A DNA stretch of 64,000 bases from Candidatus Anstonellaceae archaeon (GCA_038891055.1 JAWAEU010000001.1:1475-65474); one strand, 5' to 3'; shown: positions 5,669-62,717, counted from the stretch's first letter. A program made the numbers and translations. Notes: generated by a model from the letters alone, not told the origin.

Positions 5669-6130
5669 TTAGTCGTAGAGGCACCTACCAGCTATTGGTC
5701 TTACTCCTACTTGAGAAAGATTAGAAATTTCAGCACTATCATAATAGAGAACAATATTATAGCTAAAATAATCATAGTTTGGGCTGCATTGAGTCAAACC
5801 AGAGATTGAAATAGTCTTTTCTGCCCCTGGGCCAAATGTCCAGCCAGAGCCAAGAGAGGCAGAAAAATTTCCAGCCTTTAGGGATTTTAAAATTAAGCGC
5901 TTAGTATCAGTATTTTTTATTTTTAAATACAGGGTAGAATTTGATTGCACCCACTCTACAATAGCAAATGGCCTTGTGGAACTCCAATAAGTTTTTGATT
6001 CAGATTCCATAGCTGTAGCTGATGAATCTGAAAACCCACTTAAAAGCACAATTCCAATTAAGGAAATGATTAGTACAATTGCTATTAAAATTAAGTATTC
6101 CGCAGCTGCTTGCCCTCTAATATAAATCAC
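5669..6130 (-). CDS. Archaeal type IV pilin-like protein with class III signal peptide (DUF361-like)
   Basis: MIYIRG|QAAAEYLILIAIVLII places a prepilin cleavage motif (R/K-G-Q) before a hydrophobic helix. The C-terminus has two conserved Cys (…TQCSP…GRCLYD). GTG start directly after an in-frame stop. Paralogous to 34772-36285. Confidence 0.6.
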   Translation of the reverse strand: MIYIRGQAAAEYLILIAIVLIISLIGIVLLSGFSDSSATAMESESKTYWSSTRPFAIVEWVQSNSTLYLKIKNTDTKRLILKSLKAGNFSASLGSGWTFGPGAEKTISISGLTQCSPNYDYFSYNIVLYYDSAEISNLSQVGVRPIAGRCLYD

Positions 6131-7525: not shown

Positions 7526-8252
7526 GGAAAAAAAATTAGAAAAAGGAGAAAAAGAGAGCGATAAAATCTCTCTTACTCCAGGACTTTTAAGTTTTATTAA
7601 ACAAGTTGGATTAAGCCCACAAGAAGCTAAAAGAATACTACGAACAAATTCACAAAGAATAGAAAACCTAGTAGAAGAGCTTGAAAAAAATAAAGGAAAA
7701 ATTATAAAAAACAATAAAAGAGAATTGGGGTTTGTAAATAAAGAGGTGCCAAAAGAAAAAATTGTGGGGTATGTTAAAATTGTAGTTCTTGTAGAAAGTG
7801 TTTTTGGAATTGAAGCAGAATATTTACTTGCGATTGCAACTCAAGAATCTAATCTTAAAAATCCAAAAAATGGGGATGGGTTTTACCAAATAAATCAAAT
7901 AACTATTAAAGAACTAAAAAATAAAAAAAGGTTTGACCAAATAAAAAATAGAATATGTGAAGACAGAAAAGATAACCCCCACTTAAAAGAAATTTTGGAA
8001 AATATATATAGTAAAATTATTATTGGTTTTGAGCCTTCAGCTAACTTTGGAACACAAACTATTTTAGCTATCTTAGTGTTGTACTTAAAACACTTGGAAA
8101 AAAATATACCAATAAGCGATAAAAAAAATTTGGCAAAGGAATACAACGGAAGTAAAAGAAAAGACGAATATGCAGAAGAAGTTATGGAAAGATATTTATA
8201 TTTAAAAAAGATTAGCTTTACAGAAAAAAGAAAAAAAAGTGATGAAAGATGA
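7506..8252 (+). CDS. Lytic transglycosylase (SLT domain, GH23 lysozyme-like) protein
   Basis: AIATQESNL…GDGFYQINQ…EYNGS matches the SLT ES / GLMQ / AYNxG motif triad. No N-terminal signal peptide. Overlaps the upstream gene by 20 nt. Confidence 0.5.
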   Translation: MLLEGDKEKKLEKGEKESDKISLTPGLLSFIKQVGLSPQEAKRILRTNSQRIENLVEELEKNKGKIIKNNKRELGFVNKEVPKEKIVGYVKIVVLVESVFGIEAEYLLAIATQESNLKNPKNGDGFYQINQITIKELKNKKRFDQIKNRICEDRKDNPHLKEILENIYSKIIIGFEPSANFGTQTILAILVLYLKHLEKNIPISDKKNLAKEYNGSKRKDEYAEEVMERYLYLKKISFTEKRKKSDER

Positions 8253-25667: not shown

Positions 25668-25838
25668 AAAATTTTAAAGAAGAAAAATTTTAAAAATAGA
25701 TAATGCTGCTAAATTATCCTGTTAATTTTCTTCTAATAATTTTTAGCATTTTTTGAACTTATTGAATATTGACTAATTTGCTAAAAAAAATATTAAATTA
25801 GAATCATAAAATTAGTGTAGAATAAAAAAATTTAATAT

Positions 25839-25950
25839 GTCAGCAACAACTGGCTTTCCCGCCAGATGGCAGTAACGGCCAGTCACAAGCAGGCTTAACT
25901 TCCGAGTTCGAAATGGGATCGGGTGTTACCCTGCTCTTATGGTCGCTGAC
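25839..25950 (-). rRNA. 5S ribosomal RNA
   Basis: Reverse strand GTCAGCGACCATAAGAGCAGGGTAACACCCGATCCCATTTCGAACTCGGAAGTTAAGCCTGCTTGTGACTGG…GTTGCTGAC contains the conserved CCGAUCCCAUUUCGAACUCGGAAGUUAAGC block, with terminal helix GUCAGC/GCUGAC. GC-rich island. A TATA-like element (TTTATATAA) lies ~25 nt upstream. Confidence 0.8.
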
Positions 25951-27053: not shown

Positions 27054-27509
27054 CTACTTTTTCTTTTTGCTCTCTTTTGGAGCCTTTTGTGCTGATTGCT
27101 CTTTTTTCTCTTCTTTAGTTTCCTCTTTTGATTTTTGTAAATTAACTCCACAAAGAGGAGCAACTCTATTTATTATTGAATCTAAGAGTTCCTGGGCATT
27201 TCCCCCAGATTCAACAGAAGCTGCAGAACAAGGAACTGCCAATCCAAGAGCCCCACCTAAATCTTTTTTTGTAGGTACATATAAAAATGGAACATTGTAT
27301 TCTTTGCACAATGCTGGCAAGTGCATCACTACTTCTTGTGGCTCTACATCAGAAGCTATGACTACCAATAAAGACCTCTTTGCCTCAATTGATTTTGTGG
27401 TCTCATTTGCTCCTTTTTTTACTCTCCCTGATTCAGAAGCTATTGTAAGAGCTTCTAGTGTTTTTGCAACTATTTCTTTTGGGGTTTCATACAAAATATA
27501 GCTTGCCAT
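27054..27509 (-). CDS. Ribosomal protein L7Ae (K-turn binding protein) with Lys-rich C-terminal extension
   Basis: KKGANETTKSIE…LVVIASDVEPQEVVMHLPALCKEYNVPFLYVPTKKDLG matches the L7Ae/L30e core. Confidence 0.85.
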   Translation of the reverse strand: MASYILYETPKEIVAKTLEALTIASESGRVKKGANETTKSIEAKRSLLVVIASDVEPQEVVMHLPALCKEYNVPFLYVPTKKDLGGALGLAVPCSAASVESGGNAQELLDSIINRVAPLCGVNLQKSKEETKEEKKEQSAQKAPKESKKKK

Positions 27510-27577: not shown

Positions 27578-28057
27578 TTAAAAATCTATCGTGTTGCAGT
27601 ATTTGAGTTTTTCTTTTAGATAATCTTTTACCTCGCTGGAAAAATTCCTATTTTTATCTACTAAGAGTAAATTATTTGAGTCTAGCAATTCTAAAGTGTC
27701 TATAGCTTTTTTAGAAAGTGCAATGTCTAAATCAAAATAAATAAGCCTTTTGATAAAAAATACCAACTTATCTTTTTGGATATCTCCAACAAAATTTTTA
27801 CCATTTTGTTTGAATTCTTTTGCAATATCCTCTAAAGCAGCATTTGCTAAAGAAATATCTGCCTTCCTGGCTGAAAATTTCAAAATAATCATATAGTTTT
27901 CAAATTTTTTAGTTATGCATTCTTCTAATCTGGTTTGCTCTAACAGTGCTTTGTGATAAAAGTAACTCTTAAGAGAAACGGTGTGAGGATTTTTTGGCCA
28001 AACTCCTCTTTTAAAAAGTGCTCTAAAAGAATTTCGATTTGGCCTATACTCGTTCAT
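27578..28057 (-). CDS. Hypothetical protein
   Basis: ORF on the same strand as the r-protein cluster. The track start at 28153 overlaps tRNA-Met; the internal ATG at 28057 (MNEYRPN…) is used. Confidence 0.4.
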   Translation of the reverse strand: MNEYRPNRNSFRALFKRGVWPKNPHTVSLKSYFYHKALLEQTRLEECITKKFENYMIILKFSARKADISLANAALEDIAKEFKQNGKNFVGDIQKDKLVFFIKRLIYFDLDIALSKKAIDTLELLDSNNLLLVDKNRNFSSEVKDYLKEKLKYCNTIDF

Positions 28058-28091
28058 AACACCACCACTTAAATATTTTTGTTTTAACTTA

Positions 28092-28224
28092 TGCCAAGGG
28101 GGGGATTTGAACCCCCGACTTCCAGATTTCTCAACGTGCCAAAAATATATCATTGCAAAAGCTCAACACTCATAAATAAAAATTTATGAGTCTGGCACTC
28201 TAAACCAGGCTGAGTTACCTTGGC
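28092..28224 (-). tRNA. tRNA-Met or tRNA-Ile2 (anticodon CAT), elongator type, with a ~57-nt intron at the canonical 37/38 position
   Basis: Reverse strand reads GCCAAGG-TA-ACTC…GAGT-G-CCAGA-CTCATA[A-intron…GAGAAA]TCTGG-AAGTC-GGGGGTTCAAATCCCCC-CCTTGGC-A. The intron segment TTTATGAGT can pair with the anticodon loop ACTCATAAA, as expected for a BHB splice structure. 133 nt total. Confidence 0.75.
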
Positions 28225-28280: not shown

Positions 28281-29759
28281 ATGGATCTTTATCAAAGAAT
28301 TTTTGAAATAGGAATACAGCGGGGATTTTTTTGCCCCTCTGCTGAAATATATGGCTCAATTTCTGGATTTTATGATTATGGCCCAGTTGGCCTTAGAATA
28401 ATTAATAAGATGAAAAACAAATGGAGAGAAAAATTCATAGAAGAACCAGGATTTTTTGAAATTAAAACTTCTTTGATTTTACCAAAGAAAGTTTTAGAGG
28501 CATCTGGGCATATAAAAAATTTTGCAGATCCGATAGTTTTTTGTAAAAAAGAAAAAAAGGCTTTTAGGGCAGATAAACTACTCGAAGAGCAAGAGGAGTT
28601 TCATCATGCAGTAAGCTTAAAAGAAATAAGGGAAAAATTTAGAGAATTAAAAATAACTTGCCCTGATTGTAAAGGAGAATTAAGCGAACCTACTACTTTT
28701 AATTTGATGTTCCAAACTTCCATAGGCTCTATTGATCCACAAGAGGCTTATTTGAGACCAGAAACTGCTCAGGGGATTTTTCTAAATTTTAAAAGAATTT
28801 TTCTTCAAAGCGGTGGAAAACTCCCTATTGGTATTGGACAAATGGGTACGTCGTTTAGAAATGAAATTTCACCTCGAAAGGGCTTAGTGAGATTGAGAGA
28901 ATTTGAACAAATGGAATTAGAATATTTTTTTAGTCCTCAATTCCCCCATATAGAGGGATTTGAAAAAATTGCAAATAAAAAACTTCTTTTTAAGATAAAT
29001 CAAGAGAAAAAACTAATTTCACTCCAAGAAGCACTAGAACAAAAAATTATACCAAATGAAATATTTGCAACCTTTTTGTTTTGGCAACAAGAATTATTTT
29101 TATCTTGGGGAATTGACAAATCTAAATTGTGGTTTAAAGTTATTGATAAAAATGATTTGCCACACTACTCTTTGTGCAATGTAGATGCAGAAGTACAAAC
29201 CTCTTATGGAGAAATAGAGATCTCTGGAACTTCTTATAGAACAGATTTTGATTTGTCTTCTCATCAAAAATATTCATCTGAAAATCTAGAAGTTTTAGAT
29301 CAAAAAACAAATAAAAAAATTATCCCGCATGTAATCGAACCTTCGATAGGATTAGATCGCTCTTTTTATACATTGTTAGAACATTGTTATAGGGGAAAAA
29401 CCAAAGAAAAAGATTGGGAGTGGTTTGCTTTTCCTCCAGCCACTGCGCCATATACTGCCGCTGTTTTTCCATTAATGAAAAAGGATGATTTAGACAATTT
29501 AGCAAAAGAAGTTTATGAGATTTTAAAAACAAATAAAGTTGATTGTTATTATTCTGAAACAGGATCTATTGGAAAGAGATATGCAAAAGCAGATGAAATT
29601 GGAGTGCCTTATTGTATTACAATAGACTACCAATCAAAAGAAGATAAGGATGTTACTATTAGATTTAGAGATGATGGAAAACAAATTAGGGTCAAAATTG
29701 AACAACTACCAAAAACTCTATTTGAATTAAAAGAAAAAAACCTAACTTTTTTAAATTAG
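28281..29759 (+). CDS. glyS: Glycyl-tRNA synthetase (archaeal/eukaryotic-type class II, alpha2)
   Basis: RGFFCPSAEIYGSISGFYDYGPVG, class II motif 2 YLRPETAQGIF and motif 3-like GIGQMGTSFRNEISPRKGLVRLREFEQMELEYF. Confidence 0.9.
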   Translation: MDLYQRIFEIGIQRGFFCPSAEIYGSISGFYDYGPVGLRIINKMKNKWREKFIEEPGFFEIKTSLILPKKVLEASGHIKNFADPIVFCKKEKKAFRADKLLEEQEEFHHAVSLKEIREKFRELKITCPDCKGELSEPTTFNLMFQTSIGSIDPQEAYLRPETAQGIFLNFKRIFLQSGGKLPIGIGQMGTSFRNEISPRKGLVRLREFEQMELEYFFSPQFPHIEGFEKIANKKLLFKINQEKKLISLQEALEQKIIPNEIFATFLFWQQELFLSWGIDKSKLWFKVIDKNDLPHYSLCNVDAEVQTSYGEIEISGTSYRTDFDLSSHQKYSSENLEVLDQKTNKKIIPHVIEPSIGLDRSFYTLLEHCYRGKTKEKDWEWFAFPPATAPYTAAVFPLMKKDDLDNLAKEVYEILKTNKVDCYYSETGSIGKRYAKADEIGVPYCITIDYQSKEDKDVTIRFRDDGKQIRVKIEQLPKTLFELKEKNLTFLN

Positions 29760-29830
29760 AACAAGTTTTTGCAAAATTTGATTTAGTGCGATAAATTTTT
29801 ATTTTATAAATTAGATATAAAATTTGTAAA

Positions 29831-30046
29831 TGGCCCTCGAGCCACTTTCGCTGCCTATTTGGAGGCAGTGAGGAAGCTCTACCCACCAGGTTTTATTAGC
29901 CAACCACATAAAGTGGGGGCATCTTGAGCAGAAACGCTACCCATTTTGGGATGAAACGGCAGGATGCCCTGGCTAGCTGGTGCAAGGCCAGTTTTGGCCG
30001 CTAAGTCAAATGTGGCTTAAAACAGAAGGTAGACTATTGAGGGCCA
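29831..30046 (+). ncRNA. rnpB: RNase P RNA candidate (minimal, ~216 nt)
   Basis: GC-rich island with terminal helix GGCCCUCGA…UUGAGGGCC (P1). The P4 strands UCUACC (after AGGAAG) and GGUAGA (after ACAGAA) match CR-I/CR-V context, and GGGAUGAAACGGCAGG is CR-II-like (GGGUGAAANGGUG). A TATA-like TTTATAAAT lies ~30 nt upstream. Confidence 0.55.
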
Positions 30047-30055
30047 TTTTATAAA

Positions 30056-31726
30056 TTATTTTTTGATTACTTTTAAAAACTCTTTTAGTTCTTTGATTTG
30101 ATTCTCCACATATTCTTCAACTTTGTTTATATCTTCTTGTGAAATAATATCTAATTTACTTAATAATCTGAAGCCCTCTTTGTCTTTTTTCAATAAATCT
30201 AAAAGGAAAGCCGTTCTTTCTTTTTCTGCTATGACTGAATATAAGTTTTTTAGTATTTGTTTTAGTTTTTCTTTTTCAGCTATTAGATCTTGTTCTTGAC
30301 TAACAGCCACAGTTTGGGGGTTTAGTTGTGCGCTTTCAGAAAGTTTTTCTACAGTTTGAGTAGGTTGCTCTTCAATCAGATTAACTAAAGACTGCTTTTC
30401 TTTTTCTCCAAGACCCCCATATTTAAGAATTTTTTGAATTATGTTTTTTGGAATAGAATCAAAAAATCTTGTTTTTTTTACGGGTTTGCCTTCCTTTTCC
30501 AATATTTTTATAATTTTTTCCTTTGCTTTGGAATTTTTTAGGATAGTAGTATCTTTTTTACACTCTTCTAAAATTTCTTTTTTTATTTGTTTGTCTTTTA
30601 TTTTTGAAACTAGGAGTAGTTTAGAATTGAGCCCAAAATCTTCTCTGAAAAATAATTTTTTGTAAAATTCATCATCTGCAGAGATACTTTGTATAATATA
30701 CGATTTTTCTTTTTCTTTTAATTCAACAAAGTTTAGTAGAACTTTTTTTAGAATTTCATTTAAATTTGAGAATTCTGGGGTTTTTTGTGCAGATAATAAG
30801 CTTTCTGAATTCACTTGTTTTTTTGAGCTACTTTTTACTCCTAAGTGGTGCATTATATAACTTGGGACTTTTAAATTTTGTTCTTCTATTTTTTTTAAAA
30901 TCTCATTTTTAATACTTTTTGCTGCAGAAGCAGCTATGTAGGATCTAGTCCAATTTCTTGCATTTGGGTAAAGAAACAAATCCACAAGAATCTTGTCATC
31001 TTTTGGTATTTGTTTTATTTTCTTGATCAAATCAATCTGTTTTTTGTTAGATAGAAAAAACTCATTTAGTTTTTCTTTATCAATTTCTTCTTTTTTGCAA
31101 TTATCCAAGAGTTCAATTATTTTTTTAATATTTTGTTCTACATTAGCTTTAGTTGTATCATCTATAATCTTGTCTGCGAGTTTTGTAATATCAGAATTTT
31201 CAGCTTTTGACTCTAAAACCATCAAAATCCATTGAATGGTTTCTTTTGTCTTTTGATCCAATAATTCTATTTTTTTAGCACTAAGAAGAGATCCCATCAC
31301 TTCGATTATCTTTTTACAATCCTCCAGACTATAGTCTCTGCCGTATCCGATCGCTCTTATTACTGCACCCTTATAATCTGTTTTCAATTCTTTTATTAGT
31401 GTGTTGGCACAAAAGTTAGCTATTTTAGAAGGCTCCTCGCCATTTGCAACCAATTCCAAATAAGAGCGATTAGAGGGAAGAATATGAATATTTTTTTCTA
31501 AAATTTCTTTTGCATTTTCAGATTTTTCTATAGTGTATACTAAGATCGTTTCAACGCATTTGCTCCATCTTTGTGACTCTAAAAGTTCTTTTGCCTTTTC
31601 TTCATTTTTTTGTTCATTAATTTTAATAGCAGTACTCGTTTCTTCTGGTATTATTTCCTTATATTTATCAAAGTTTTCTTTACTTACTTTTAGTTGTTCT
31701 TGCTTTTTTATAATATTGCGTTCCAT
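30056..31726 (-). CDS. Hypothetical K/E-rich soluble protein
   Basis: 556-aa ORF with no TM segment and no recognisable motif. Confidence 0.45.
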   Translation of the reverse strand: MERNIIKKQEQLKVSKENFDKYKEIIPEETSTAIKINEQKNEEKAKELLESQRWSKCVETILVYTIEKSENAKEILEKNIHILPSNRSYLELVANGEEPSKIANFCANTLIKELKTDYKGAVIRAIGYGRDYSLEDCKKIIEVMGSLLSAKKIELLDQKTKETIQWILMVLESKAENSDITKLADKIIDDTTKANVEQNIKKIIELLDNCKKEEIDKEKLNEFFLSNKKQIDLIKKIKQIPKDDKILVDLFLYPNARNWTRSYIAASAAKSIKNEILKKIEEQNLKVPSYIMHHLGVKSSSKKQVNSESLLSAQKTPEFSNLNEILKKVLLNFVELKEKEKSYIIQSISADDEFYKKLFFREDFGLNSKLLLVSKIKDKQIKKEILEECKKDTTILKNSKAKEKIIKILEKEGKPVKKTRFFDSIPKNIIQKILKYGGLGEKEKQSLVNLIEEQPTQTVEKLSESAQLNPQTVAVSQEQDLIAEKEKLKQILKNLYSVIAEKERTAFLLDLLKKDKEGFRLLSKLDIISQEDINKVEEYVENQIKELKEFLKVIKK

Positions 31727-32243: not shown

Positions 32244-34598
32244 CTAATGAAGCAATCCGATTTTCCAACTTGCTGCAATAACAAATTCTCTACAAATAAG
32301 TCCAAAATAATTCGAAGAATAAGAAGCCACTATATCAAAATTTCTTATCAAAAAGTTGTTATAACCAACCTCAACTCCAAAAGTATAATTTGGAGTGATT
32401 CCTCCTTTATTTATATATCTATTAAATTTTGGTTCTAATATATTTTTTTCAATTCCTATAAAACAATTGACAAAAAAATTTTTCTTTTCTGCTTTAGCTC
32501 TAAATTCGCATTTTGGATTTGCATTTAAAAAATTGAAGAAAGAACTAAAACTTAACTTATTTTCAAACCCATAGAGTTGGAAGTAGTTTTCAATACTCAA
32601 CCCAATTTCCATTACAGAATTTTTTTCTAAAAATTTTTCTACTGAAATTCTAAGGCTAGGTTCGACTGTTGTATTTTCCAAAAAGTTTTCAACAAACTTG
32701 AAATAAAAATCAAGATAATAGAGAATATCTTCATTTAGAAAGTCTTGAGGCACTACAAAATTTGTTATGTTTAGATCACCGTATTCAATTTTTTTATTTC
32801 CTCCAATTAAGTACAAAATTCCAAATTCTTCTCTTAGTATTATTTTGTTATTTTCTATCTTCTTTTCATCGGTTCTTTTAAAATTTAGCCCTAATAAATG
32901 GGTATTGTTAATTTCAAAAGTTAAGTTAGAATTCTCTATTTTTCCAAAAGCATAAGGTAAATAGTATGCGCCTATTTTTGTTTTGTCTAATTCTAAGTTT
33001 AAACCTATTGAATTAAAGTATGAAAATAAATTTTTTATAGAGCCAGTTTCATCAACTTTAATTGGGGCAATTACACTTTCTTTTTTGTTTTGAATTAAAG
33101 GATTTTGTGACTTACCAACTAAGTATAAAAATGGTTTTTTATTTTCTTTATAACTCCTTCTTGTTGGAGGGTTAATTTGCGTCTGTAAACCTTCATTTTG
33201 ACTTATAGAATTACTATTTTGAACTTCTTTTATTTTTCTTGAATATTTTTTAATCTCTTCGTTTTTATATATTTCTACTTTAGTGGGAGTATTTAATATA
33301 AAATAGGCTGGAAATAAAATTCTGAAATTAGGATCCAGTATTTCTTTTTTTTCTATTTCTCTATGTAAAAGAAAGATAACGTTAGAGCCTAGATCTCTAA
33401 TTTTAAAAATTTTGAAATCTTCTAACTGGTCACTTTTTTTTAAAACGAGTTCTTTGACTGCCTTTGAGGAGAGGAAAATTCCATTTTCTTCATAATGAGC
33501 TATTAAGACATCTAAAAACATATTTACTTTGTTTTGTGCGTCAAAAAAATTTATATTTTGTGAAGGTAGAGTTACATTGATTTTAATTCTTATTTCTGGC
33601 AATATCAACCCATACCAATGATATATTTTTGCTATTTTTCTTATAGATTTACTTCTTTCTATTTTTTGCCTTAAGTTTTCTTTAAATTTATAAACCTCCT
33701 CTTTTGAAGGATGAATTTTTAATTTATCTAAAAGATTTTTTACCTCTTTTGCATATTCTTGGGCTTCAAAATCTTTCGAGTTTTGAAGTTCTCTTAAAAA
33801 ATTTTCAATTTCTAAAATAATTTTTTCTAAGGGTTTATCTTCCTCTAAGTATAGCACAATTGCCGTTTTTTTTATTTTTATTATTTTAGCCAAACTATCT
33901 GCAATCTCTGTAGCTAATTTGCTATTGTGATATTTTCTCCATTTATTGTATAACCCCAATTCAGAAGCAGAGGCTACGGAGATTATGTTGTCTAGATATT
34001 TACAGTAATTTATATAGATCATATCCTTTTCATCTTTTTCTAATTGTGTTTTGTAGAGAACCTCTCTTACAGCTCTTTTTGAATGAAACAGAAAATCCTT
34101 AGATTCTTTTTTTAATCTATTATAAATCTCTTGCTTTATTTTTCCATACTCCAGCTTTTTATCTTCTAAATCCAATAGAGTTACTCTAGCGACTTTTTCA
34201 AATGCGACAAGCACTGCATCTAAACAAAGCTCTTTCACATTTTCTTCCATTTTTTTTATATTTTCCTCAGATAAAGTATATTTTTTTTCGATCTCTCTAA
34301 ATATTTTAATAGTATCTGCATCAAAACTAATTTTTTCTTCAAATTGTAAAAATGGACTTTCGCCTTCTACAACATAAAAATCTTTTTGATTTTCCACGAC
34401 AAATTTCTTCTTTTCTTTATAACTTTGGACATCCAGCCAACCCTTTTGAGAAGATATTTTATTTTCTTTAGATTTAATGAATTCATTTTCTTTTGAAATT
34501 AGATTTTGATTTGTATTAAAAAAATTAAAAAAAATAGTAAACGCTACTGCTGTTTTTTTAAATTTATTAAATTTCTCTCTAAGCCTTAAGAAATGCAT
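32244..34598 (-). CDS. Hypothetical large protein (N-terminal hydrophobic segment, beta-rich C-terminal region)
   Basis: 784-aa ORF. N-terminal TAVAFTIFFNFF; the C-terminal ~250 aa show an alternating hydrophobic pattern. Confidence 0.45.
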   Translation of the reverse strand: MHFLRLREKFNKFKKTAVAFTIFFNFFNTNQNLISKENEFIKSKENKISSQKGWLDVQSYKEKKKFVVENQKDFYVVEGESPFLQFEEKISFDADTIKIFREIEKKYTLSEENIKKMEENVKELCLDAVLVAFEKVARVTLLDLEDKKLEYGKIKQEIYNRLKKESKDFLFHSKRAVREVLYKTQLEKDEKDMIYINYCKYLDNIISVASASELGLYNKWRKYHNSKLATEIADSLAKIIKIKKTAIVLYLEEDKPLEKIILEIENFLRELQNSKDFEAQEYAKEVKNLLDKLKIHPSKEEVYKFKENLRQKIERSKSIRKIAKIYHWYGLILPEIRIKINVTLPSQNINFFDAQNKVNMFLDVLIAHYEENGIFLSSKAVKELVLKKSDQLEDFKIFKIRDLGSNVIFLLHREIEKKEILDPNFRILFPAYFILNTPTKVEIYKNEEIKKYSRKIKEVQNSNSISQNEGLQTQINPPTRRSYKENKKPFLYLVGKSQNPLIQNKKESVIAPIKVDETGSIKNLFSYFNSIGLNLELDKTKIGAYYLPYAFGKIENSNLTFEINNTHLLGLNFKRTDEKKIENNKIILREEFGILYLIGGNKKIEYGDLNITNFVVPQDFLNEDILYYLDFYFKFVENFLENTTVEPSLRISVEKFLEKNSVMEIGLSIENYFQLYGFENKLSFSSFFNFLNANPKCEFRAKAEKKNFFVNCFIGIEKNILEPKFNRYINKGGITPNYTFGVEVGYNNFLIRNFDIVASYSSNYFGLICREFVIAASWKIGLLH

Positions 34599-34771: not shown

Positions 34772-35251
34772 ATGGCTTTCAAAAAAGGACAAGGTGCAAC
34801 TGAGTATTTGGTTTTGTTAGCAGTTGTTTTAATAGTGGCAATGGTAGCTATAGCATTATTGGGATTCTTCCCAGGCATGGCATCAGATGCCAAAATTACT
34901 CAATCTGATGCTTATTGGAGAGGACAAGCAACACCATTTGCAGTAGCAGAACATGCCAGAAGCTCATCTGATCAAAACCTAATATTAGTATTAGAAAACA
35001 ATGCAGGAGAACAAAAGCAACTTACAAATATTACAATTTCAGGATCTGGAATTTCTATGACATATAACACCACAACGTCAGAGAGATTCTTCTCTGCCGG
35101 GGAAAGAAAAAAGATTACTGTGAACTTAGGATCCAATTGTACTGCTGGAACAACTTATGAATATAATTTAGTATTTACATACACAAATCCAGATGGCTCT
35201 ATTACAAAGAAACAATTTGGTGAAAAACCACTTGTAGGAAAATGCTCCTAA
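34772..35251 (+). CDS. Archaeal type IV pilin-like protein (class III signal peptide), tandem copy 1
   Basis: MAFKKG|QGATEYLVLLAVVLIVAMVAIALLG, conserved YW(R/K)G and two C-terminal Cys (GSNCTAG…GKCS). GGAGGG RBS upstream. Confidence 0.6.
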   Translation: MAFKKGQGATEYLVLLAVVLIVAMVAIALLGFFPGMASDAKITQSDAYWRGQATPFAVAEHARSSSDQNLILVLENNAGEQKQLTNITISGSGISMTYNTTTSERFFSAGERKKITVNLGSNCTAGTTYEYNLVFTYTNPDGSITKKQFGEKPLVGKCS

Positions 35252-35300
35252 AGAAGGAGCCTCTTTTCCTTTTATTTTTTTAAATTTTTGAGGTGAGTTT

Positions 35301-35771
35301 TTGTTAGGCTATAAAAAAGGCCAAGGTGCGAGTGAATATCTAATTTTGTTAGCAGTTGTTTTAATAATCGGAATTATTGCGATTGCTCTTTTAGGTGGAT
35401 TTACAGAAATGGGAGGAGGAGCAAAAGAAACAGAATCTCGACAATATTGGAAGGGAGTAATAAGGCCATTTACAATCCAAGATTGGGCACAGAGAGGTAC
35501 TAATGTCTATCTTACTATTAAAAATATGGAGCCCACAAAATTAGTAATTAATAACATAACAATAGGAAATGTAACTTATAGCCCACCTGGGGGAATTTCA
35601 TTTGGCGGTGGAGCCTCAAAAACAATTACAATTGGAGGATTTACAGCATGTAATGCAAGTTCTTATGATTATTTTGAATACCCAATAACTATAGTGTATT
35701 CTTCTTCAGATATTTCTGGAAGAATACAAAAGGGAGAAAAACCAATAGTTGGCCCTTGCCAAGTAGAATAA
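35301..35771 (+). CDS. Archaeal type IV pilin-like protein (class III signal peptide), tandem copy 2
   Basis: MLGYKKG|QGASEYLILLAVVLIIGIIAIALLG and C-terminal Cys pair (TACNASS…GPCQVE). Clearly paralogous to copy 1. Confidence 0.6.
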   Translation: MLGYKKGQGASEYLILLAVVLIIGIIAIALLGGFTEMGGGAKETESRQYWKGVIRPFTIQDWAQRGTNVYLTIKNMEPTKLVINNITIGNVTYSPPGGISFGGGASKTITIGGFTACNASSYDYFEYPITIVYSSSDISGRIQKGEKPIVGPCQVE

Positions 35772-35832
35772 AGATAGGACTCCACTAATCTATACTACCT
35801 AATTTTTATATTTTCTTTTTTTAATTTGTTAT

Positions 35833-36285
35833 ATGAAAAAAGCCCAAACTTCTGTAGAGTATATAATTTTAGTAGCAATTATTTTAGTTATTGGTTTGGT
35901 GGTTTTGACATTAAGTGGACTTTTTCCATCTTTTTCTTTTTCTACTGAAGCTTATAGTTCCAAAAGTTATTGGGATAGCGCAATGCCAATTTCAATAGTA
36001 GACAGTTACCAAAGCAACTCCACACTCTATCTTGTTTTAAAAAATAGAGCTAACACCATCATCAACATAAGTTCAATTAAATTGGTTTATGGCTTAAATG
36101 AAATTTATAGCTATTCTCAAAATATTATTTTATTTCCAGCTCAAACTCAAAACATTTCAATTTCAGCAAAAAGTTGCCAAAAATCACAAACAGTTTTTTA
36201 TGATATTACCTTTGTTTATTCTACTACTTCTACAGAAAATCTAACTTATAGAGGTATAAAACCTCTATATATCCTCTGCCAATAA
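35833..36285 (+). CDS. Archaeal type IV pilin-like protein (divergent), tandem copy 3
   Basis: MKKAQTSVEYIILVAIILVIGLVVLTLSG, SKSYWDS and C-terminal Cys pair (KSCQKSQ…YILCQ). Confidence 0.5.
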   Translation: MKKAQTSVEYIILVAIILVIGLVVLTLSGLFPSFSFSTEAYSSKSYWDSAMPISIVDSYQSNSTLYLVLKNRANTIINISSIKLVYGLNEIYSYSQNIILFPAQTQNISISAKSCQKSQTVFYDITFVYSTTSTENLTYRGIKPLYILCQ

Positions 36286-36289
36286 TGGT

Positions 36290-36784
36290 TCAGTCCTTAT
36301 TTTCGTTTTGATATATCCCACAATAAATTGAGGTTGCCTCTTTTTCCAATCTAATAAAAATTAATTGAATAACTTTTGCATTTTTATATAAAATTAAACC
36401 ATTTGGGTTAAATACTACTAAAAGCCCCTCACTTCTTCCACTATAGCCAGGGTCCCATATTGCATTTATAGCGGCTGCCCCTGCTCTAAGAAGAGAAGAG
36501 CGAGACTGTGCAATAGCAATTGCATTCTTTGGTACATTTATTATCTCGTTAAATATTATTTTATATGCTCCTGGTAACAATTTTATTTTATCTTCTTCGT
36601 CCCACTCTATTTTTTTTGTTTTTGGCAATAATCTTTTTTTGTTCTCTCCGTCAATCTGGCCAATGTCCTCAAAAGTATGAATCTCTCTTATAGTTAGATC
36701 AAAACCAGCAGGTTGTTGTTGATGTGAATAAACATAATTTTCTATTAATTTTTCTTGAAGTATTTTTGATCCTTCTATGATCAT
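36290..36784 (-). CDS. dUTPase/dCTP deaminase superfamily protein (dUTPase-like)
   Basis: PAGFDLT, SRSSLLRAGAAAINAIWDPGYSG follows the dUTPase/Dcd motif pattern (S-x-x-R-x-G, xDPGYxG). 164 aa. Confidence 0.6.
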   Translation of the reverse strand: MIIEGSKILQEKLIENYVYSHQQQPAGFDLTIREIHTFEDIGQIDGENKKRLLPKTKKIEWDEEDKIKLLPGAYKIIFNEIINVPKNAIAIAQSRSSLLRAGAAAINAIWDPGYSGRSEGLLVVFNPNGLILYKNAKVIQLIFIRLEKEATSIYCGIYQNENKD

Positions 36785-36871: not shown

Positions 36872-38632
36872 ATGTCAATTCGCTCTCCTATTGTATGTAT
36901 TTTAGCTCATGTAGACCATGGGAAAACCTCTTTGTTAGATTATATTAGAGGTAGTGCGATTGCAAAAAAAGAACCAGGAGCTATTACCCAAATGATTGGT
37001 GCTTATTATCTACCTAGAAATACAATTATAAAACTAAGTGGTGAACTTGGTCAGAAAGTAGAAAACACTCTAAAAGTGCCAGGTATTTTATTTATCGATA
37101 CTCCTGGCCATGAGGCTTTTACTTCTATGCGACAGAGGGGAGGTTCAATCTCAGATATTGCTATTTTAGTTATTGATATTACCCAAGGGATACAAAAACA
37201 GACAATTGAATCTGTGCAAATATTACTTAGATCTAAAGTGCCCTTTTTAGTAGCATTAAATAAAGTAGATCTAATTTATGGATGGAAGCCACAGCCGACT
37301 ACATCGATTTTAAAATCTATTGAAAAGCAATCTCAAAAAACTATCGAGTATTTAGAAGAAAAAACTTATTCGATTTTAGGAGAATTGACTAATTTTAATA
37401 TAAAGGTGGAGAGGTTCGACAGAGTTAAAGACTTTACAAAAGAAATAGTAGCGATCCCTTGCTCTGCAAAAACAGGCGAGGGAACTGCGGAACTACTACT
37501 CTATCTCTCCGGGCTAACTCAAAAATATCTTGCCTCCTCTCTTTCTCTAAAAACAGATGGGCCTGCAAAAGGCTCAATATTAGAGGTAAAGGAGGAAAAA
37601 GGTTTAGGGACCACAATAGATGTAATAATCTACGAAGGCAAACTCAAAAAAAATAGTTTAATTGCTTTTGCCTCTCTCTCTGGCCCACTAAAAACAAAGA
37701 TTAGGGGTATTTTTAGACCTCCAACTAACCAAGAAAAAATAGAATCTCAAAAATTAGTTTCTGTAGATGAGGTTGTTGCTGCTGCAGGAGTAAAAATTTA
37801 TGCACAAAATTTAGAAGGTGCATTAGCAGGATCCCCACTATACTCAATAGAAAATGAAAGGGATTTTGAGGAGATTTCTAAAGAGATTTCTAAAACCATT
37901 AGCGATATCTTAATAAAAAAGTCTGACTTTTTAGGAGTTATTGTAAAAACAGATACCCTGGGTTCTGCAGAAGCTTTTTTAAATCTTTTAAATTCAAAAA
38001 ATATAGCTGTTAGAGAAGTTGGAATTGGACCGATCACAAAAAAGGATATAATAGAGGCTGCAGCTGTTTCTAACTTAGACAGATATTTGGGAGTTATTCT
38101 AGCATTTAATGTTGACCTTCCAAAAGAGGTAGAAGAAGAGGCTAAAAGGCGTTCAATAAAAATCTTTAATTCAAAAGTTATTTTTGAATCTTTTGAAAAC
38201 TATCTTTCTTGGCTAGAGGAGGAAAAAGAAAAGCAAAAATTGCAGATTCTCTGCTCTGTCTCTTATCCTGTAAAATTAAAAATTTTACCTCAATGTTTTT
38301 TTAGATTGTGCAAACCAGCAATCTTTGGAGTGGAGGTTTTAGCTGGAAAACTAAAACCAAAGTCTGTTTTAGTTAAAGCAGATGGTACCATCATTGGAGA
38401 GGTAAAAAGTATTCAAAATCAAGGCCAGAGTGTTTTGGAGGCAAAGGCAGGAGAAAAAGTTGCTATAGCAATAGATGATTGTTATTGTGGAAGGACTATA
38501 AAAGAATTAGATATTCTCTTTAGCTACATTAGCCCAGCACAACAAGAGGAAATAAAGAAGCATTGTTTAGATATGCTCACAAAGGAAGAACTTTTAGTTT
38601 TAGAAGAAATAGAAAAAATTATAAAAAAATAA
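36872..38632 (+). CDS. infB: Translation initiation factor aIF5B (IF-2 homologue)
   Basis: G1 AHVDHGKTSLLD, G3 DTPGHEAF and G4 NKVD, followed by beta-barrel domains. 586 aa, no intein. Confidence 0.9.
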   Translation: MSIRSPIVCILAHVDHGKTSLLDYIRGSAIAKKEPGAITQMIGAYYLPRNTIIKLSGELGQKVENTLKVPGILFIDTPGHEAFTSMRQRGGSISDIAILVIDITQGIQKQTIESVQILLRSKVPFLVALNKVDLIYGWKPQPTTSILKSIEKQSQKTIEYLEEKTYSILGELTNFNIKVERFDRVKDFTKEIVAIPCSAKTGEGTAELLLYLSGLTQKYLASSLSLKTDGPAKGSILEVKEEKGLGTTIDVIIYEGKLKKNSLIAFASLSGPLKTKIRGIFRPPTNQEKIESQKLVSVDEVVAAAGVKIYAQNLEGALAGSPLYSIENERDFEEISKEISKTISDILIKKSDFLGVIVKTDTLGSAEAFLNLLNSKNIAVREVGIGPITKKDIIEAAAVSNLDRYLGVILAFNVDLPKEVEEEAKRRSIKIFNSKVIFESFENYLSWLEEEKEKQKLQILCSVSYPVKLKILPQCFFRLCKPAIFGVEVLAGKLKPKSVLVKADGTIIGEVKSIQNQGQSVLEAKAGEKVAIAIDDCYCGRTIKELDILFSYISPAQQEEIKKHCLDMLTKEELLVLEEIEKIIKK

Positions 38633-38634
38633 TT

Positions 38635-39153
38635 TTATTGGTTTTTTGCGATTTTTCCAAATTTTTTATATGGTTTTTGAGTAGGCTGTGCGGTGTAAGA
38701 AAGACAGATTTGACTAATTCGCATTCCGCTGTACAATTTAATAGAATAAGGTGCAAAATTTACTATCTCTAATACTTGCCTGTTAGAACATCCTGGCTGA
38801 ACTAAAGAAGAAGTAACATGTACTGCTAATCCAATTCGAGCATATCTACTTCTGCCCTCCAACCTGCCCATTATATTTGGAGCTAGAGTTATCTTCTCTT
38901 TTGTCACTCCAAGACAAAGTTGGCTTGGTGCAAGGACTACTGAATTAGCAGTTATTTTTTGAAAAATGTCTTTTGACTCTATTTTCTTTAAATCTACTAA
39001 CTTGTTTTCAAATTCTTTTTTTATAAACCAAAATTCATTGGATAGGGTTAGATCGATAGAGCCTGATCCTATCTGATCCTTTTTAAGTCTTGGCTCTATT
39101 TTAATATTGCCATTTTTTATTTCTTTTAGTATGTCTTTGTCTGAAAGTTGCAC
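38635..39153 (-). CDS. dcd: dCTP deaminase
   Basis: LSDKDILKEIKNGNIKIEP…GSGSIDLTLSNEFWF…GRSRYARIGLAVHVTSSLVQPGC aligns to E. coli Dcd MRLCDRDIEAWLDEGRLSI…VDVRLGNKF… Probable GTG start at 39153; the track's upstream ATG at 39288 would overlap the divergent gene. Confidence 0.7.
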   Translation of the reverse strand: MQLSDKDILKEIKNGNIKIEPRLKKDQIGSGSIDLTLSNEFWFIKKEFENKLVDLKKIESKDIFQKITANSVVLAPSQLCLGVTKEKITLAPNIMGRLEGRSRYARIGLAVHVTSSLVQPGCSNRQVLEIVNFAPYSIKLYSGMRISQICLSYTAQPTQKPYKKFGKIAKNQ

Positions 39154-39234
39154 AAATAACTTATAATAAATACTTTTAAATAACTTATCCAAAGTTATAA
39201 AATCTTTTTTTACTATAATTATAATAGTGATTGA

Positions 39235-40026
39235 ATGGTAAAGTTTGATAGAAAAAAATTTCTCAAAAAAGCAGAAGAGGGAGTGCAAAAAGAACTATCT
39301 TCTCCTGACCACCTAATTATTCAAACAGTTAATGCCTTGGATGAGCTAAATAAGATATTCAACCTATGCTTTGAGAGGGTGAGTGAATGGTATGCCATTC
39401 ACTTTCCAGAATTGAAATTAAAAGAACCTAAAAAATATCTACTTGTAGCAAGTTTTTTTAACAGAAAAAATCCAAGTAAAGAAAAATTAGAAGAAATTTT
39501 AGGGCAGCAGGCAAGCAGTGTTTTACAACTTTCAAAAAATTCAGTTGGAGTTATTTTAGATGACGAGGACTTTGAACCTATTAAAGAATATGCTCTTTTA
39601 GGTTTAGAGATCTATGATAAAAAAGAAAAATTAGAAAACTATCTAAAAAAACTTACAAAGAGAGTTGCACCAAACTTGGCTTATTTGTGTGGAGAAATTT
39701 TAGCTGCAAGATTAATAGAAAAAGCAGGTGGATTGAATAAATTGGCAACTTTTCCATCTTCTACTATCCAAGTTTTAGGGGCAGAAAAAGCTTTGTTCAA
39801 ACATTTAAAGTCAGGATCTCCCCCTCCAAAACATGGTATCATATTTCAACACCCCTCTATTAGTGGAACTTCTAAAAAACTTAGAGGAAAAATAGCTAGG
39901 ACCTTAGCCTCTAAAATAGCAATAGCTGCAAAGGCAGATGCTTTCTCAAAGCAATTTATTGCTCAAAAACTCAAAGAAAAATTTGACCAAAGGATAAAAA
40001 ATATTTTAAATAAAGGTGGTGGATGA
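39235..40026 (+). CDS. Nop-domain protein (Nop5/Nop56/58 family), short form lacking the usual N-terminal domain
   Basis: LCGEILAARLIEKAGGLNKLATFPSSTIQVLGAEKALFKHLKSGSPPPKHGIIFQHPSISGTSKKLRGKIARTLASKIAIAAKADAF is a clear Nop (snoRNP) domain. Only 263 aa. Confidence 0.65.
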   Translation: MVKFDRKKFLKKAEEGVQKELSSPDHLIIQTVNALDELNKIFNLCFERVSEWYAIHFPELKLKEPKKYLLVASFFNRKNPSKEKLEEILGQQASSVLQLSKNSVGVILDDEDFEPIKEYALLGLEIYDKKEKLENYLKKLTKRVAPNLAYLCGEILAARLIEKAGGLNKLATFPSSTIQVLGAEKALFKHLKSGSPPPKHGIIFQHPSISGTSKKLRGKIARTLASKIAIAAKADAFSKQFIAQKLKEKFDQRIKNILNKGGG

Positions 40027-49752: not shown

Positions 49753-49849
49753 ATTTAAAAAAGTACCAAAAAATCGACAAAATCTATTTGAAAAGATAGA
49801 ATTTGGGTGAAGATATTCCGACAAACTAGATTTTAGCTAGGTGTGGTAT

Positions 49850-52740
49850 TTTGGTTTAGTAGCAGCAGGCTACACCGCTCGCTTTTGGCTTGCGGCTTAC
49901 ACCTCTGCCCTATCAAACGGATCTGCTATCCGCCCATTAGCCTGACTCGTTTTGAGAGCTGCTTCGACCTTAGATGCTTTCAGGTCTTATCAGCTAGCGC
50001 GTAGCTGCCCGGCGATGCTATTACACAACCGGTACACCAGAGGCGCCGTACCCGTGTTCCTCTCGTACTCATGGGTACTTACTCTCAGTCAGGCAGCACT
50101 TCCAGGAGATACTACCGTACTGTCTCGCGACGTACTGAACCCAGCTCATGTAGGACTTTAATGGATGAACAACCCAACCCTTGGTGGCTCCTACACCACC
50201 AGGATGTCCTAAGCCGACAGCGATGTACCAAACCGCGGGGTCGATGTGTACTCTCGCCCGCGACGAGCCTGTTACCCCCGGGGTAGCTTGTCTGACAGCT
50301 TGGAGCCCCATCAAAAGGCTACCAAGGTTCGTTAAGCCCGGCTTTCGCCTCTGCTCTCCACGCTGTTAGGAGAACAGTCAGCCCAGCATATGTCTTTAAC
50401 CCTTAACAGTGCATTTCTGACGCACCTAAGCTGAGCATTGGGCACCCTTGTTTATTTATCGAGGGTGTACCGCCCCAGCCAAACTATCCACCTGATGCTG
50501 TCTACCCTCTAGGAGTATAAGCAGTACAAGGCAACTAAAATGGTGTTACATCGTCGCCTATCTAATGCCCGAAAGCATTAGCTTAGCGGCTCCCATTTAC
50601 TCTATGTTAGCCACCCTATACCACAACATCAGGCTATAGTAAAGCTCCACGGGGTCTTCGTTTCCCCCTGGAAGTCCACTGCATACTCACAGTGTAGTAG
50701 GTTCACCAGGTCCTGGCATGGGACAGTGGGAGAGTCGTTACGCCCTTCATGCAAGCCACCAATTAAGCGGCGAGGTATTACGCTACCTCAAGAGGGTCAG
50801 AGTTACCCCCGCTCTTTGCCGGCGCTTAGGCCCGTTGTAACAGGCTTTCACGTACCGGTAGTGAGCAGGCGTCACCCGCAATACTAACCGTTTCCGGTTT
50901 GCTGCGAGTTGTGTTTTTGATAAACAGTCGCTCTCCCCTTGTCACTGCGACCTGCTGATGCTTAAAACAACAGCAGGCACCGCTTCTCCCTAAGTTACGC
51001 GGCGAATTTGCCGAGTTCCCTATGCCAAGTTATCCTGCCACGCCTTGGCTTGTTCAGCCAGCAGCACCTGTATTAGTTCTAGGTACGGTTAGCCAAGATC
51101 GCTTTTTACTCTCTTTTCATGGGACCCAGGAATTGGGCAACTTGCGCATTCCTAAGGTTATACCATTTCTCCTGACAATCAGACTCCATGGTATTGCCTT
51201 AGTTAGACAGCCGAAGCTGCTTGCCCTATCCCAAGCCGTCGAGAGTAAAACTTGCGTTACCGCATCTACTTGGCTAGGACCGGAATATTAACCGGTTTCC
51301 CTTTCGCATAGTGGGAATTACCCCTATGCTTAGGACCGCCTAACTCTAGGCTGACGAACATCTCCTAGAAAACCGTGTGCTATGCGGCGTCCAGGATTTT
51401 CACCTGGATATGCTGTTACTAATACCAGGATATTCATAACTGGTCGGTCCATAGGAGCTTACGCCCCTACTTCTATCCAACCAGCTCGCCCCCCTACCAG
51501 CCTTGCACCCATAGAGGTGCAAGCTCTAGGGTATCGGTACTGGGCTTAGTCCCGAGCCTCTTTGAAGATTATACTCTAGACTGGTCCGCTATTACGCGTT
51601 GTTTAAAGGATGGCTGCTTCTAAGCCTACCTTCCAGCTGTTTTTGAGTATAACCTTCTTTGCGATTGACACTTAGCCCAGATTTAGGGACCTTAACCCTA
51701 GGTACGGTCGTTCCCGTAACGGCCTGCTAGCTTACCCAGCAGAACCCGACTCCCTGCTTCTTCGGCGAGTATAGATTCGAGGTTTGACGATCAGGTGAGG
51801 CCTTTCGACCCCGTTCCTGATAATCAGTGCCCTACCCTACACTCTACCTCCGCAGAGGCTATACTGAGATATACTTCGAGGGGAACCCGCTATTGCCGAG
51901 TTCGATTGGACTATCACCCCTACCCGTGGGTCACCCAAGCAGAATATACTAGCACTGGTTGCGGTCCTCCATCCACCTTCAGGTGGACTTCGACCTGCCC
52001 ACGCGTAGATCACATCGGCTTCGGGTCTGAAGGGAGTGACTGCTCGCCATTTCTGACGAGGGGGTAAACCCAACTTGCTTTCGCTTCGGCTCTCGCCTTG
52101 CCACGCCCTTCAACTCCCTGGCCCTTGCTTCGAGAAGGACGATATGACAGTGGGACTGTTCTATCGCGCTTAGCTTCACAGCTAAGCACTTTTAGAACAG
52201 TTATCCTTTCCTGCCATATCAAACTGTAGCCACTTAGTTTCAAGTTCTTTTCACCCCCCGTTTTGGGGAACTTTTCAGCTTTCCCTCGCGGTACTAGTGC
52301 GCTATCGGTCTTGGGTTATATTTAGCATTGGAAGTTGATACTCCCAAATTCACGCCACATACTCAAGTGACGCTACTCTTAAATGGCCTCTTGCCATATT
52401 CTGTCCGCACACGGGGCTATCACCCTCTATGGCTCAGCTTTCCAGCTGATTGTGCTCCAGAACATGGCTAAGTAGCCCCCTACATCTCCAGTCAGTTACC
52501 TGACTTGGATTTAGGGACGTGCTCTTTGGCTTTCACTCACCGTTACTCACCAAATCCCATTTTGGTTTCTCTTCCTGCCGGTACTAAAATGTTTTAATTC
52601 CCGGCGTGAGTTGCCCATCACAGGGACAAGGCCAGACCCCAGGATCGCAGGATTCATGCTCCTCCCCTGGGCTTATCCCAGCTTGACAGGTGGCCATTTC
52701 TACCCAAGCCAAGCTATCCACTAAGTGGCATAACAGCATA
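49850..52740 (-). rRNA. 23S ribosomal RNA (about 2.87 kb; ends approximate)
   Basis: Sharp GC-rich island. The reverse strand contains the sarcin-ricin loop AGUACGAGAGGAAC, domain V GGGGAUAACAGGCU and the 5' domain …CACUUAGUGGAUAGCUUGGCUUGG…GAUAAGCCCAGGGGAGG. It is flanked by a long inverted repeat (49805-49829 vs 52758-52798) typical of archaeal pre-rRNA processing stems. The track ORFs inside it are artefacts. Confidence 0.85.
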
Positions 52741-53030
52741 CCACACCTATTTGCTCTCTAGTTTGTCACTGCAAATGCAATTGGAACTATCTTCACCCAA
52801 TGCCATTGCCAAAAATTGGCAATGGTGAGGCAAAGCCTCTTGCTCTTGGCAGCTGCCAAGATGCAAAAAATACACTAATCTATATGTAAGATAAAATGCA
52901 TCGCAACCAACTTTTTAACAAGCATAGTTGGTGCTGATGTCAGCCTAAAATGGCTGAATTTTAAGTAGAAATAAATATATACCAACAAATATATAAATCT
53001 TTTGGTTGAAAATCTAAACTAATCTATAAA

Positions 53031-61001: not shown

Positions 61002-62528
<1,527 letters not shown>

Positions 62529-62717
62529 AAGCTTTGGAGATGTTTGTGCAAGGCCTTTTTCTGTCCTTGGAATAAATCCAAAGAGTGCTCTGCTTTATCT
62601 ATTTTTGATAAAAAGTCGCGCATCTCCCCTGAACCATGCCAAAAAATCGATGAGTTGCAATTTTTTAAGATAACTTTAAATACTTTTCCGTCGTAAATAA
62701 TATGTAAAAAATTCACG

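Follow-up and report, generated by a model that had tools for sequence, protein, structure and literature searches.

A compact RNase P RNA gene with a stub P12 in a DPANN archaeon

We identified an RNase P RNA gene of 220 nt at 29829–30048 (+) in a 64-kb stretch of DNA from a DPANN archaeon (64,000 nt, hereafter the window), an assignment confirmed by computational sequence analysis. As a whole, the locus is best explained as encoding the RNA subunit of a ribonucleoprotein RNase P of a DPANN archaeon, a reading that we hold with a probability of roughly 94%. RNase P matures the 5′ ends of tRNAs by trimming, and its RNA subunit is catalytic. By family membership, the window RNA would take part in the cleavage of pre-tRNA 5′ leaders together with the proteins Pop5, Rpp30, Rpp21 and Rpp29.

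The whole 64-kb window was scanned against Rfam at gathering thresholds, and 29829–30048 was its sole RNase P match. The archaeal family RF00373 (RNaseP_arch) was matched end to end (model positions 1–288; E-value 3e-25) with 95.2 bits, only 11 bits over its gathering score of 84; a covariance model of the clade, R1, scored the same RNA at 209.6 bits. A sequence-only reading of this DNA had proposed an RNase P RNA at 29831–30046, and each of its ends lies within 2 nt of those found here. It had named SRP RNA or another ncRNA, with no RNase P match, as the outcome that would speak against it; RF00373 was matched, and neither SRP RNA nor any other Rfam family reached its gathering score at 29829–30048. 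The GC-rich island noticed in that reading was also borne out by measurement, with 50–55% GC across the locus versus 20–35% in the background. The folding energy corresponded to z = −5.5 relative to 200 dinucleotide shuffles, none of which folded as well. The identification in itself is not new biology, because a standard Rfam scan finds the gene.

To collect homologues, one genome per GTDB species was scanned for the pattern GAGGAA...CAGAAACG...GATGAAACG with a short CR-II to CR-III spacing; a short P12 was thus required, and the counts cover short-P12 forms. The scan returned at least 119 loci, and about 70 of those listed lie in archaeal genome bins. Among the matches listed, the archaeal bins are mostly labelled Micrarchaeota/Micrarchaeia, Iainarchaeum, Aenigmatarchaeota, Pacearchaeota and Bilamarchaeaceae, others only "archaeon". 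Bacterial loci were treated as chance pattern matches and left out of the clade-model search, and the loci from Desulfurococcaceae (L001) and Natronomonas (L007), which were searched with the clade model, gave no match to it. A regular-expression filter for CR-IV and CR-V kept 19 of the 119 listed loci and was too strict, so nhmmer and a covariance model were used instead. The closest RNAs found by nhmmer among the matches listed were L026, L095, L029 and L079, all from Micrarchaeota-labelled bins, and R1 was built from these four and the window RNA. R1 detected at least 70 matches in DPANN bins, about 65 of them full length, ranging from 187 to 326 nt, with many at 199–225 nt.

The compact RNAs of the DPANN bins (187–240 nt; e.g., L121, L026, L079, L095 and L029) share with the window RNA a common architecture and common module sizes, the same P4 variant GAGGAAG(C/U)UC and the same neighbouring gene for glycyl-tRNA synthetase (GlyRS). 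In these homologues, the distance from P4 to CR-II is 45–55 nt, that across P12 is 10–24 nt and P15 spans 11–16 nt; the modules of the window RNA match these sizes, which makes it an ordinary member of the class and not an outlier. None of the listed matches is identical to the window RNA, which was likewise absent from the metagenome matches, and the GlyRS proteins are only 57–62% identical, so the window represents a fairly distant relative of these bins. The nearest RNAs and the nearest neighbouring GlyRS genes among the matches listed lie in Micrarchaeota-labelled bins.

An alignment of 70 sequences, to which the pseudoknot was added (A2), revealed that 91.8% of cells pair; shuffling the columns lowered this to 63%, and sliding the partners by 1–3 columns to about 39%. 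Changes on both sides were observed at 53 of the 58 pairs. When applied unguided to nine subclade relatives, RNAalifold recovered P1, P3, P4, P5, the P9 hairpin, P10/11, P12 and P15. The same design is found in about 65 listed genomes with abundant compensatory changes, which argues for purifying selection on the structure. The minimum-energy fold of the single sequence was rejected as a helix map: such a fold cannot represent the pseudoknot, so that a nested P4 displaces P2, and a false AGC/GCU pairing is introduced within CR-II.

The RNA gene is located between a GlyRS gene (28281–29759, +), which is class II-like and carries the Pfam domains HGTP_anticodon and tRNA-synt_2b, and a 556-aa ORF (30056–31726, −). 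GlyRS is the immediate upstream neighbour of the RNA in L121 and L079; in L120 it is located about 180 nt upstream, and in L026 and L095 it lies within 1–2 kb. The window's order of an intron-containing tRNA gene, GlyRS and RNase P RNA recurs in L121 and L079. The tRNA gene in question (28092–28224, −; 133 nt) has the anticodon loop CUCAUAA with the anticodon CAU and an intron of about 60 nt; it scored 55.6 bits with Rfam and was missed by ARAGORN. Reading of the flanks points to a putative archaeal promoter at 29798–29812 (+), an A/T-rich, TATA-like tract about 20–30 nt upstream of the 5′ end, and to a putative terminator in the T-rich tract past the 3′ end (30049–30064, +). In close relatives, TATA-like boxes (TTAAATA or TTATAAA) occur about 24–31 nt upstream of the conserved AAUGGCC start, and oligo-T runs also follow the RNA 3′ end in several close relatives.

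A GC-rich structured island over which a minus-strand ORF can be drawn could in principle be another structured RNA, such as SRP RNA, or could encode the 64-aa protein of ORF 29692–29886 (−), and we give such readings practically no chance. RNaseP_arch is the only Rfam family that attains its gathering score at this site. The ORF begins with a GTG start codon inside P4 and runs antisense through the promoter region into GlyRS, overlapping 58 nt of the RNA and 68 nt of the GlyRS 3′ end. Searches against Pfam and NCBIfam returned no match for it. In relatives, the RNA is covered by scattered ORFs in differing frames, none of them consistently placed, as expected because a GC-rich stretch is poor in stop codons. 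We therefore judge the ORF spurious, as the sequence-only reading had done, and retain the assignment to RNase P RNA.

With RNA position 1 set at window position 29829 and all elements on the plus strand, the window RNA contains the five conserved regions CR-I to CR-V in order, together with P1–P3, the P4 pseudoknot, P5, P7, P10/11 and P15. All positions in its helices form Watson–Crick or G–U pairs. The architecture is that of a two-domain RNA, the C-domain of which comprises P1, P2, P3, P4 (CR-I/CR-V), P5, a closed P15 and CR-IV. In P1, AAUGGCCCUC (29829–29838, RNA 1–10) pairs with GAGGGCCAUU (30039–30048, RNA 211–220) at 10 of 10 Watson–Crick positions; the helix is 95.1% paired in 70 homologues, with changes on both sides at all 10 pairs. 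This is the helix that had earlier been perceived as complementary termini at 29831 and 30046, positions 2 nt inside it. P2 is formed by 7 bp between 29839–29845 (RNA 11–17) and 30012–30018 (RNA 184–190), and is 96.9% paired, with covariation at 6 of the 6 modelled pairs in 70 sequences. P3 follows as a hairpin of 7 bp with an 8-nt loop (29849–29870, RNA 21–42; 98.9% paired, recovered by RNAalifold). CR-I with the P4 5′ strand, AGGAAGCUCUACC (29871–29883, RNA 43–55), pairs with CR-V and the P4 3′ strand, ACAGAAGGUAGACU (30022–30035, RNA 194–207), exactly where the two strands had been placed from the sequence.

P5 pairs 29884–29889 (RNA 56–61) with 29977–29982 (RNA 149–154) at 6 of 6 positions; it is 89.1% paired in the family, 5 of its 6 pairs covary, and RNAalifold recovers it independently. 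The J5/15 linker CAA (29983–29985, RNA 155–157), read from the sequence within a conserved GCAAG, occupies the "A anchor" position. P15 is a closed hairpin of 14 nt, with 5 bp and a GUUU loop (29986–29999, RNA 158–171), which is 96.9% paired, covarying and recovered by RNAalifold; distal to it, 35 consensus positions of the Rfam alignment are represented by 4 nt in the window RNA. L15, P16, P17 and P6 are absent, and the C-domain is therefore reduced too. CR-IV (J15/2), GCUAAGUCAAAUG, was located at 30000–30012 (RNA 172–184) by the Rfam alignment and by comparison with relatives. In some close relatives, a further hairpin of about 17–22 nt is inserted between the P2 3′ strand and CR-V (L095:1888–2125, L029:2960–3198, L120:859–1094 and L123:628–861), in a P19-like position and in some cases with a GNRA-type tetraloop (GCAA in L029); the window RNA has no such insert.

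Between P5 and P7 lies J5/7, a 7-nt, A/U-rich asymmetric internal loop GUUUUAU (29890–29896, RNA 62–68) opposite a single G at 29976 (G148); in relatives, this joiner measures 3–10 nt. The S-domain beyond it is reduced to P7, P9, a 10-bp P10/11 and a P12 stub of 4 bp between CR-II and CR-III. P7 pairs 29897–29902 (RNA 69–74) with 29970–29975 (RNA 142–147) at 6 of 6 positions and forms in single-sequence folds of the window RNA and of several close relatives. At the family level it is the weakest element (66–77% paired in A2), because A2 is poorly aligned there. A single hairpin, CCAC-AUAAA-GUGG (29904–29916, RNA 76–88), is placed at P9 by the Rfam alignment, which deletes P8, and was named P9 because of its position next to P10; it is 96.3% paired with covariation at 4 of 4 pairs, and exactly one hairpin occurs between P7 and P10/11 in every close relative folded. 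Most compact homologues have a strongly conserved loop at this hairpin, (U)UUAAG(G) or CUAAGG, where the window RNA reads AUAAA (29908–29912); the conservation in the homologues suggests a tertiary or protein contact.

P10/11 is formed by 10 bp between 29917–29926 (RNA 89–98) and 29960–29969 (RNA 132–141); it is 79.2% paired, all of its pairs covary, and RNAalifold recovers it. CR-II (J11/12), AGCAGAAACG (29927–29936, RNA 99–108), is invariant in the closest relatives and matches the Rfam consensus ACAGAAACG. P12 consists of CCCA-UUU-UGGG (29940–29950, RNA 112–122), that is, 4 bp with a 3-nt loop, 93.2% paired; at this point, 46 consensus positions of the Rfam alignment compare with 4 nt in the window RNA. 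CR-III (J12/10), GAUGAAACGG, was assigned to 29950–29959 (RNA 122–131) from the Rfam alignment and from comparison with relatives. The element GGGAUGAAACGG (29948–29959), which the sequence-only reading had described as CR-II-like, is in fact CR-III, on the 3′ side of P12, the real CR-II being the one at 29927–29936. That reading had further described an RNA lacking much of the S-domain, which holds for the periphery, where P8 is absent and P12 is a 4-bp stub, and does not hold for the core, which is intact. It was right that the RNA is reduced overall: 220 nt compare with 252 nt in Methanocaldococcus jannaschii (M. jannaschii) and with the 288 positions of the RF00373 consensus.

The P4 pseudoknot comprises 8 pairs, with 99.2% of cells paired in the 70 sequences and changes on both sides in 6 of the 8. 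In the canonical register, C49 of the window RNA (29877) stands opposite A205 (30033), a mismatch beside the catalytic bulged U, and oppositions of the C49/A205 type account for the only four unpaired P4 cells (4/66). If the register slips so that A205 takes U50 as its partner and C49 bulges out, P4 is intact in 9 of 9 subclade sequences, and RNAalifold chooses this register; either C49 or U50 may thus be the bulged nucleotide beside the active site. In Iainarchaeum- and Pacearchaeota-type relatives, the canonical GAGGAAAGUCC pairs with GGCUUA, and in Micrarchaeota- and Aenigmatarchaeota-type relatives GAGGAAGUUC pairs with GGACUA or GGGCUA. With the U bulged, as the canonical register has it, the change amounts to two compensatory swaps, A–U to G–C and G–C to U–A/U–G, both within the three base pairs adjoining the bulge; the window and its subclade carry C at the second swapped position, facing A205. 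The near-universal AAAG-U-CC/GGCUU is thereby replaced by AAG(U/C)-U-C/GGACU in the Micrarchaeota- and Aenigmatarchaeota-type RNAs (window 29876–29878 and 30033–30034).

The loss of several peripheral elements and the C–A opposition beside the catalytic bulge in P4 could also be signs of a decaying, nonfunctional relic, in which case tRNA 5′ ends would be supplied by a protein-only enzyme or, as in Nanoarchaeum equitans, tRNAs would be transcribed without a leader. HARP is such a protein-only alternative to RNase P. Genes for Pop5, Rpp21, Rpp29 and Rpp30 were not found among the 30 of 55 called ORFs of the 64-kb window that were scanned (most of the small and mid-sized ones, searched against Pfam, with the no-hit ORFs rerun against NCBIfam), which would fit the same scenario. 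Against it stand the intact CR-I to CR-V with every helix fully paired, the compensatory changes that accompany the compact design across the listed genomes, and the P4 register that remains intact throughout the subclade. In published surveys, HARP was not found in DPANN genomes, and every archaeal genome examined had RNase P proteins (PMC6380272, PMC4919917). We consider a relic very unlikely.

As late as 2026, the literature divides archaeal RNase P RNAs into no types other than A, M and T (PMC13462272). The window RNA is type-M-like without the P12 kink-turn module. By published definition (PMC3579882, PMC7191817), type M lacks P8, L15, P16, P17 and P6, all of which are likewise absent from the window RNA. 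The helix set P1–P5, P7, P9, P10/11, P12 and P15 is the same as in the type M RNAs of Methanococcales and Archaeoglobus fulgidus, as are the small-loop P15, the 3-nt J5/15 and the intact CR-I to CR-V. In contrast, the long P12 of type M, with its P12/P12.1/P12.2 extension, forms a double kink-turn that binds two copies of L7Ae (PMC5499556), whereas the window RNA has 4 bp and a 3-nt loop at this position. Coordinates in PMC7191817 give 235–258 nt for type M, 15–38 nt longer than the window RNA, and about 207 nt for type T from a single coordinate pair, so that on these figures 220 nt falls between the two types. The M. jannaschii RNA, for which a cryo-EM structure exists, has 252 nt (PMC6565675).

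The 7-nt loop between P5 and P7 distinguishes the window RNA from other archaeal RNAs, which are reported without a joiner there (PMC3579882). The hosts also differ, a DPANN lineage versus Methanococci and Archaeoglobi, the only groups from which type M is reported (PMC7191817). Type A, represented by the RF00373 consensus and by Pyrococcus and Methanothermobacter, shares its family, core and conserved regions with the window RNA, but the P8 and the L15–P16–P17 arm with the P6 pseudoknot that define it are both absent here, as is most of P12. The type A RNA of P. furiosus has three mapped kink-turns (PMC5499556), and the window RNA has none of them. At P9, the AUAAA loop of the window RNA contrasts with the GNRA tetraloop that the Rfam consensus leads one to expect of type M.

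With regard to overall size, the window RNA resembles type T (Thermoproteaceae; Rfam RNaseP-T), and both are products of reductive evolution. A minimal RNA of this kind, known from Pyrobaculum and other Thermoproteaceae, consists of a catalytic domain with next to no specificity domain; it would suit a length of 220 nt, close to the 207 nt of one type T coordinate pair in PMC7191817, and would suit the earlier impression of a largely missing S-domain. Type T, however, lacks P11, J11/12, J12/11, CR-II, CR-III and P12 (PMC7191817). Its P2 has 3 bp, its P5/P15 linker is contracted to 2 nt, and RF00373 misses it (PMC3579882). The window RNA has CR-II, CR-III and a covarying 10-bp P10/11, a P2 of 7 bp and the 3-nt linker CAA, and RF00373 matches it above threshold. 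Type T also keeps L15 and P16/17 with a kink-turn (PMC13462272, PMC6565675), whereas P15 is closed in the window RNA, so that the two RNAs show reverse patterns of loss, the T-loop anchor being kept here. Because the S-domain core (P7, P9, P10/11, CR-II and CR-III) is intact, the window RNA is not type T, a reading already refuted by these elements and to which we attach only a minimal residual probability; the type-M-like assignment is maintained.

In archaeal RNase P RNAs, L7Ae is known to bind at kink-turns, which types A and M carry in P12 and types A and T in P16/17 (PMC5499556, PMC13462272). With neither a P12 extension nor P16/17, none of these sites exists in the window RNA. A lenient motif scan of the window RNA gave four candidate kink-turn geometries, all of which use segments of covariation-supported helices or of conserved regions; as none is compatible with the fold, they were rejected. 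From this absence of the motif, we infer that L7Ae is probably not RNA-bound in this RNase P. An L7Ae gene is present in the window (27054–27509), in the usual L7Ae–S28e–L24e cluster. In 13 of 64 related compact RNAs among the matches listed, a kink-turn-like motif occurs at the hinge of P5 and P7, with the form P5-(N)-GA-P7 ... P7-NNN-GA-(N)-P5 (e.g., L081:532–777, L103:3543–3783, L071:4580–4779 and L004:4754–4963; in L081, CAUC-GA-GGGG ... CCCC-GAG-GA-GAUG). The window and its subclade have the A/U-rich loop at this hinge and no kink-turn-like motif. In the relatives that carry it, the motif may represent an L7Ae site moved from P12 to the domain junction.

Open-access literature on RNase P RNA in DPANN, Micrarchaeota and ARMAN yielded no description of the compact form. 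We tentatively propose, at somewhat less than even odds, that the window RNA belongs to a fourth, unnamed structural class widespread in DPANN, with a type-M-like C-domain, a stub P12, no kink-turn and no RNA-bound L7Ae, sister lineages having relocated their L7Ae site to the P5/P7 hinge instead of losing it. The enzyme would most likely rely on Pop5–Rpp30 and Rpp21–Rpp29, encoded elsewhere in the genome, without RNA-bound L7Ae. By analogy with the structure of the M. jannaschii holoenzyme with tRNA (PMC6565675), the tRNA elbow would be stacked upon by an "anchor" of interleaved T-loops formed by CR-II and CR-III, the middle A of J5/15 would stack on the first base pair of the acceptor stem, and metal ions at P4 and its neighbours would catalyse hydrolysis of the 5′ leader. 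Since P15 is closed and L15 is missing, the RNA cannot base-pair with a tRNA 3′ CCA (RCCA); the three tRNA genes in the window do not encode CCA, which fits this absence.

The gene is a routine housekeeping gene, and its compact architecture is common in DPANN among the matches listed. Types A, M and T each have at least one L7Ae kink-turn (PMC13462272), and the compact RNAs lack both arms while keeping the core and the tRNA-elbow anchor; they therefore show how small a two-domain RNase P RNA can naturally become. This makes them a test case both for the dispensability of L7Ae and for the binding of Rpp21–Rpp29 to an S-domain without the P12 arm. The class also lies at the edge of the curated RF00373 model. 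When that model was run against 17 relatives, 12 passed at 89–145 bits, the 145-bit score coming from one Pacearchaeota bin and the other class members above the 84-bit threshold scoring 89–111 bits; the remaining 5 (L026, L029, L032, L100 and L111) fell below 84 bits, yet scored 81–203 bits with the clade model. Some DPANN genomes will therefore wrongly appear to lack RNase P RNA, a practical risk for annotation.

Several further features of the window were recorded. The rRNA genes are unlinked, with 5S at 25838–25950 (−), 23S at 49837–52745 (−) and 16S at 61002–62529 (+); protein genes fill the 8 kb between 16S and 23S, which lie on opposite strands, and 5S is located at a distance of 24 kb. 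In the 16S gene, a 32-nt insertion at 61474–61526 splits the universal GTGCCAGC(C)GCCGCGGTAA site, which reads GTGCCAGCCGC-[32 nt]-GCGGTAATAC. A hairpin can be folded from the inserted sequence, and the insertion would defeat the common 515F primer site.

Several sizeable ORFs have no meaningful Pfam match, among them 30056–31726 (−), 32244–34598 (−), 7506–8252 (+) and 27578–28153 (−). The first of these, the lysine- and glutamate-rich 556-aa ORF next to the RNA gene, gave only a sub-threshold Pfam match (E 0.0095), and an NCBIfam search with 30056–31726, 7506–8252 and 27578–28153, the 784-aa ORF 32244–34598 being left out, returned no significant match. Two dCTP-deaminase-like paralogues, 36290–36784 (−) and 38635–39288 (−), lie 2 kb apart and flank a translation-factor-like ORF (36872–38632). 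Four small ORFs, one at 5669–6130 (−) and three in tandem within 34772–36285 (+), share a similar hydrophobic N-terminal motif; the one at 5669–6130, the only one of the four scanned, gave a weak Class_IIIsignal match below the Pfam cutoff. The shared motif resembles a class III (archaeal pilin-type) signal peptide.
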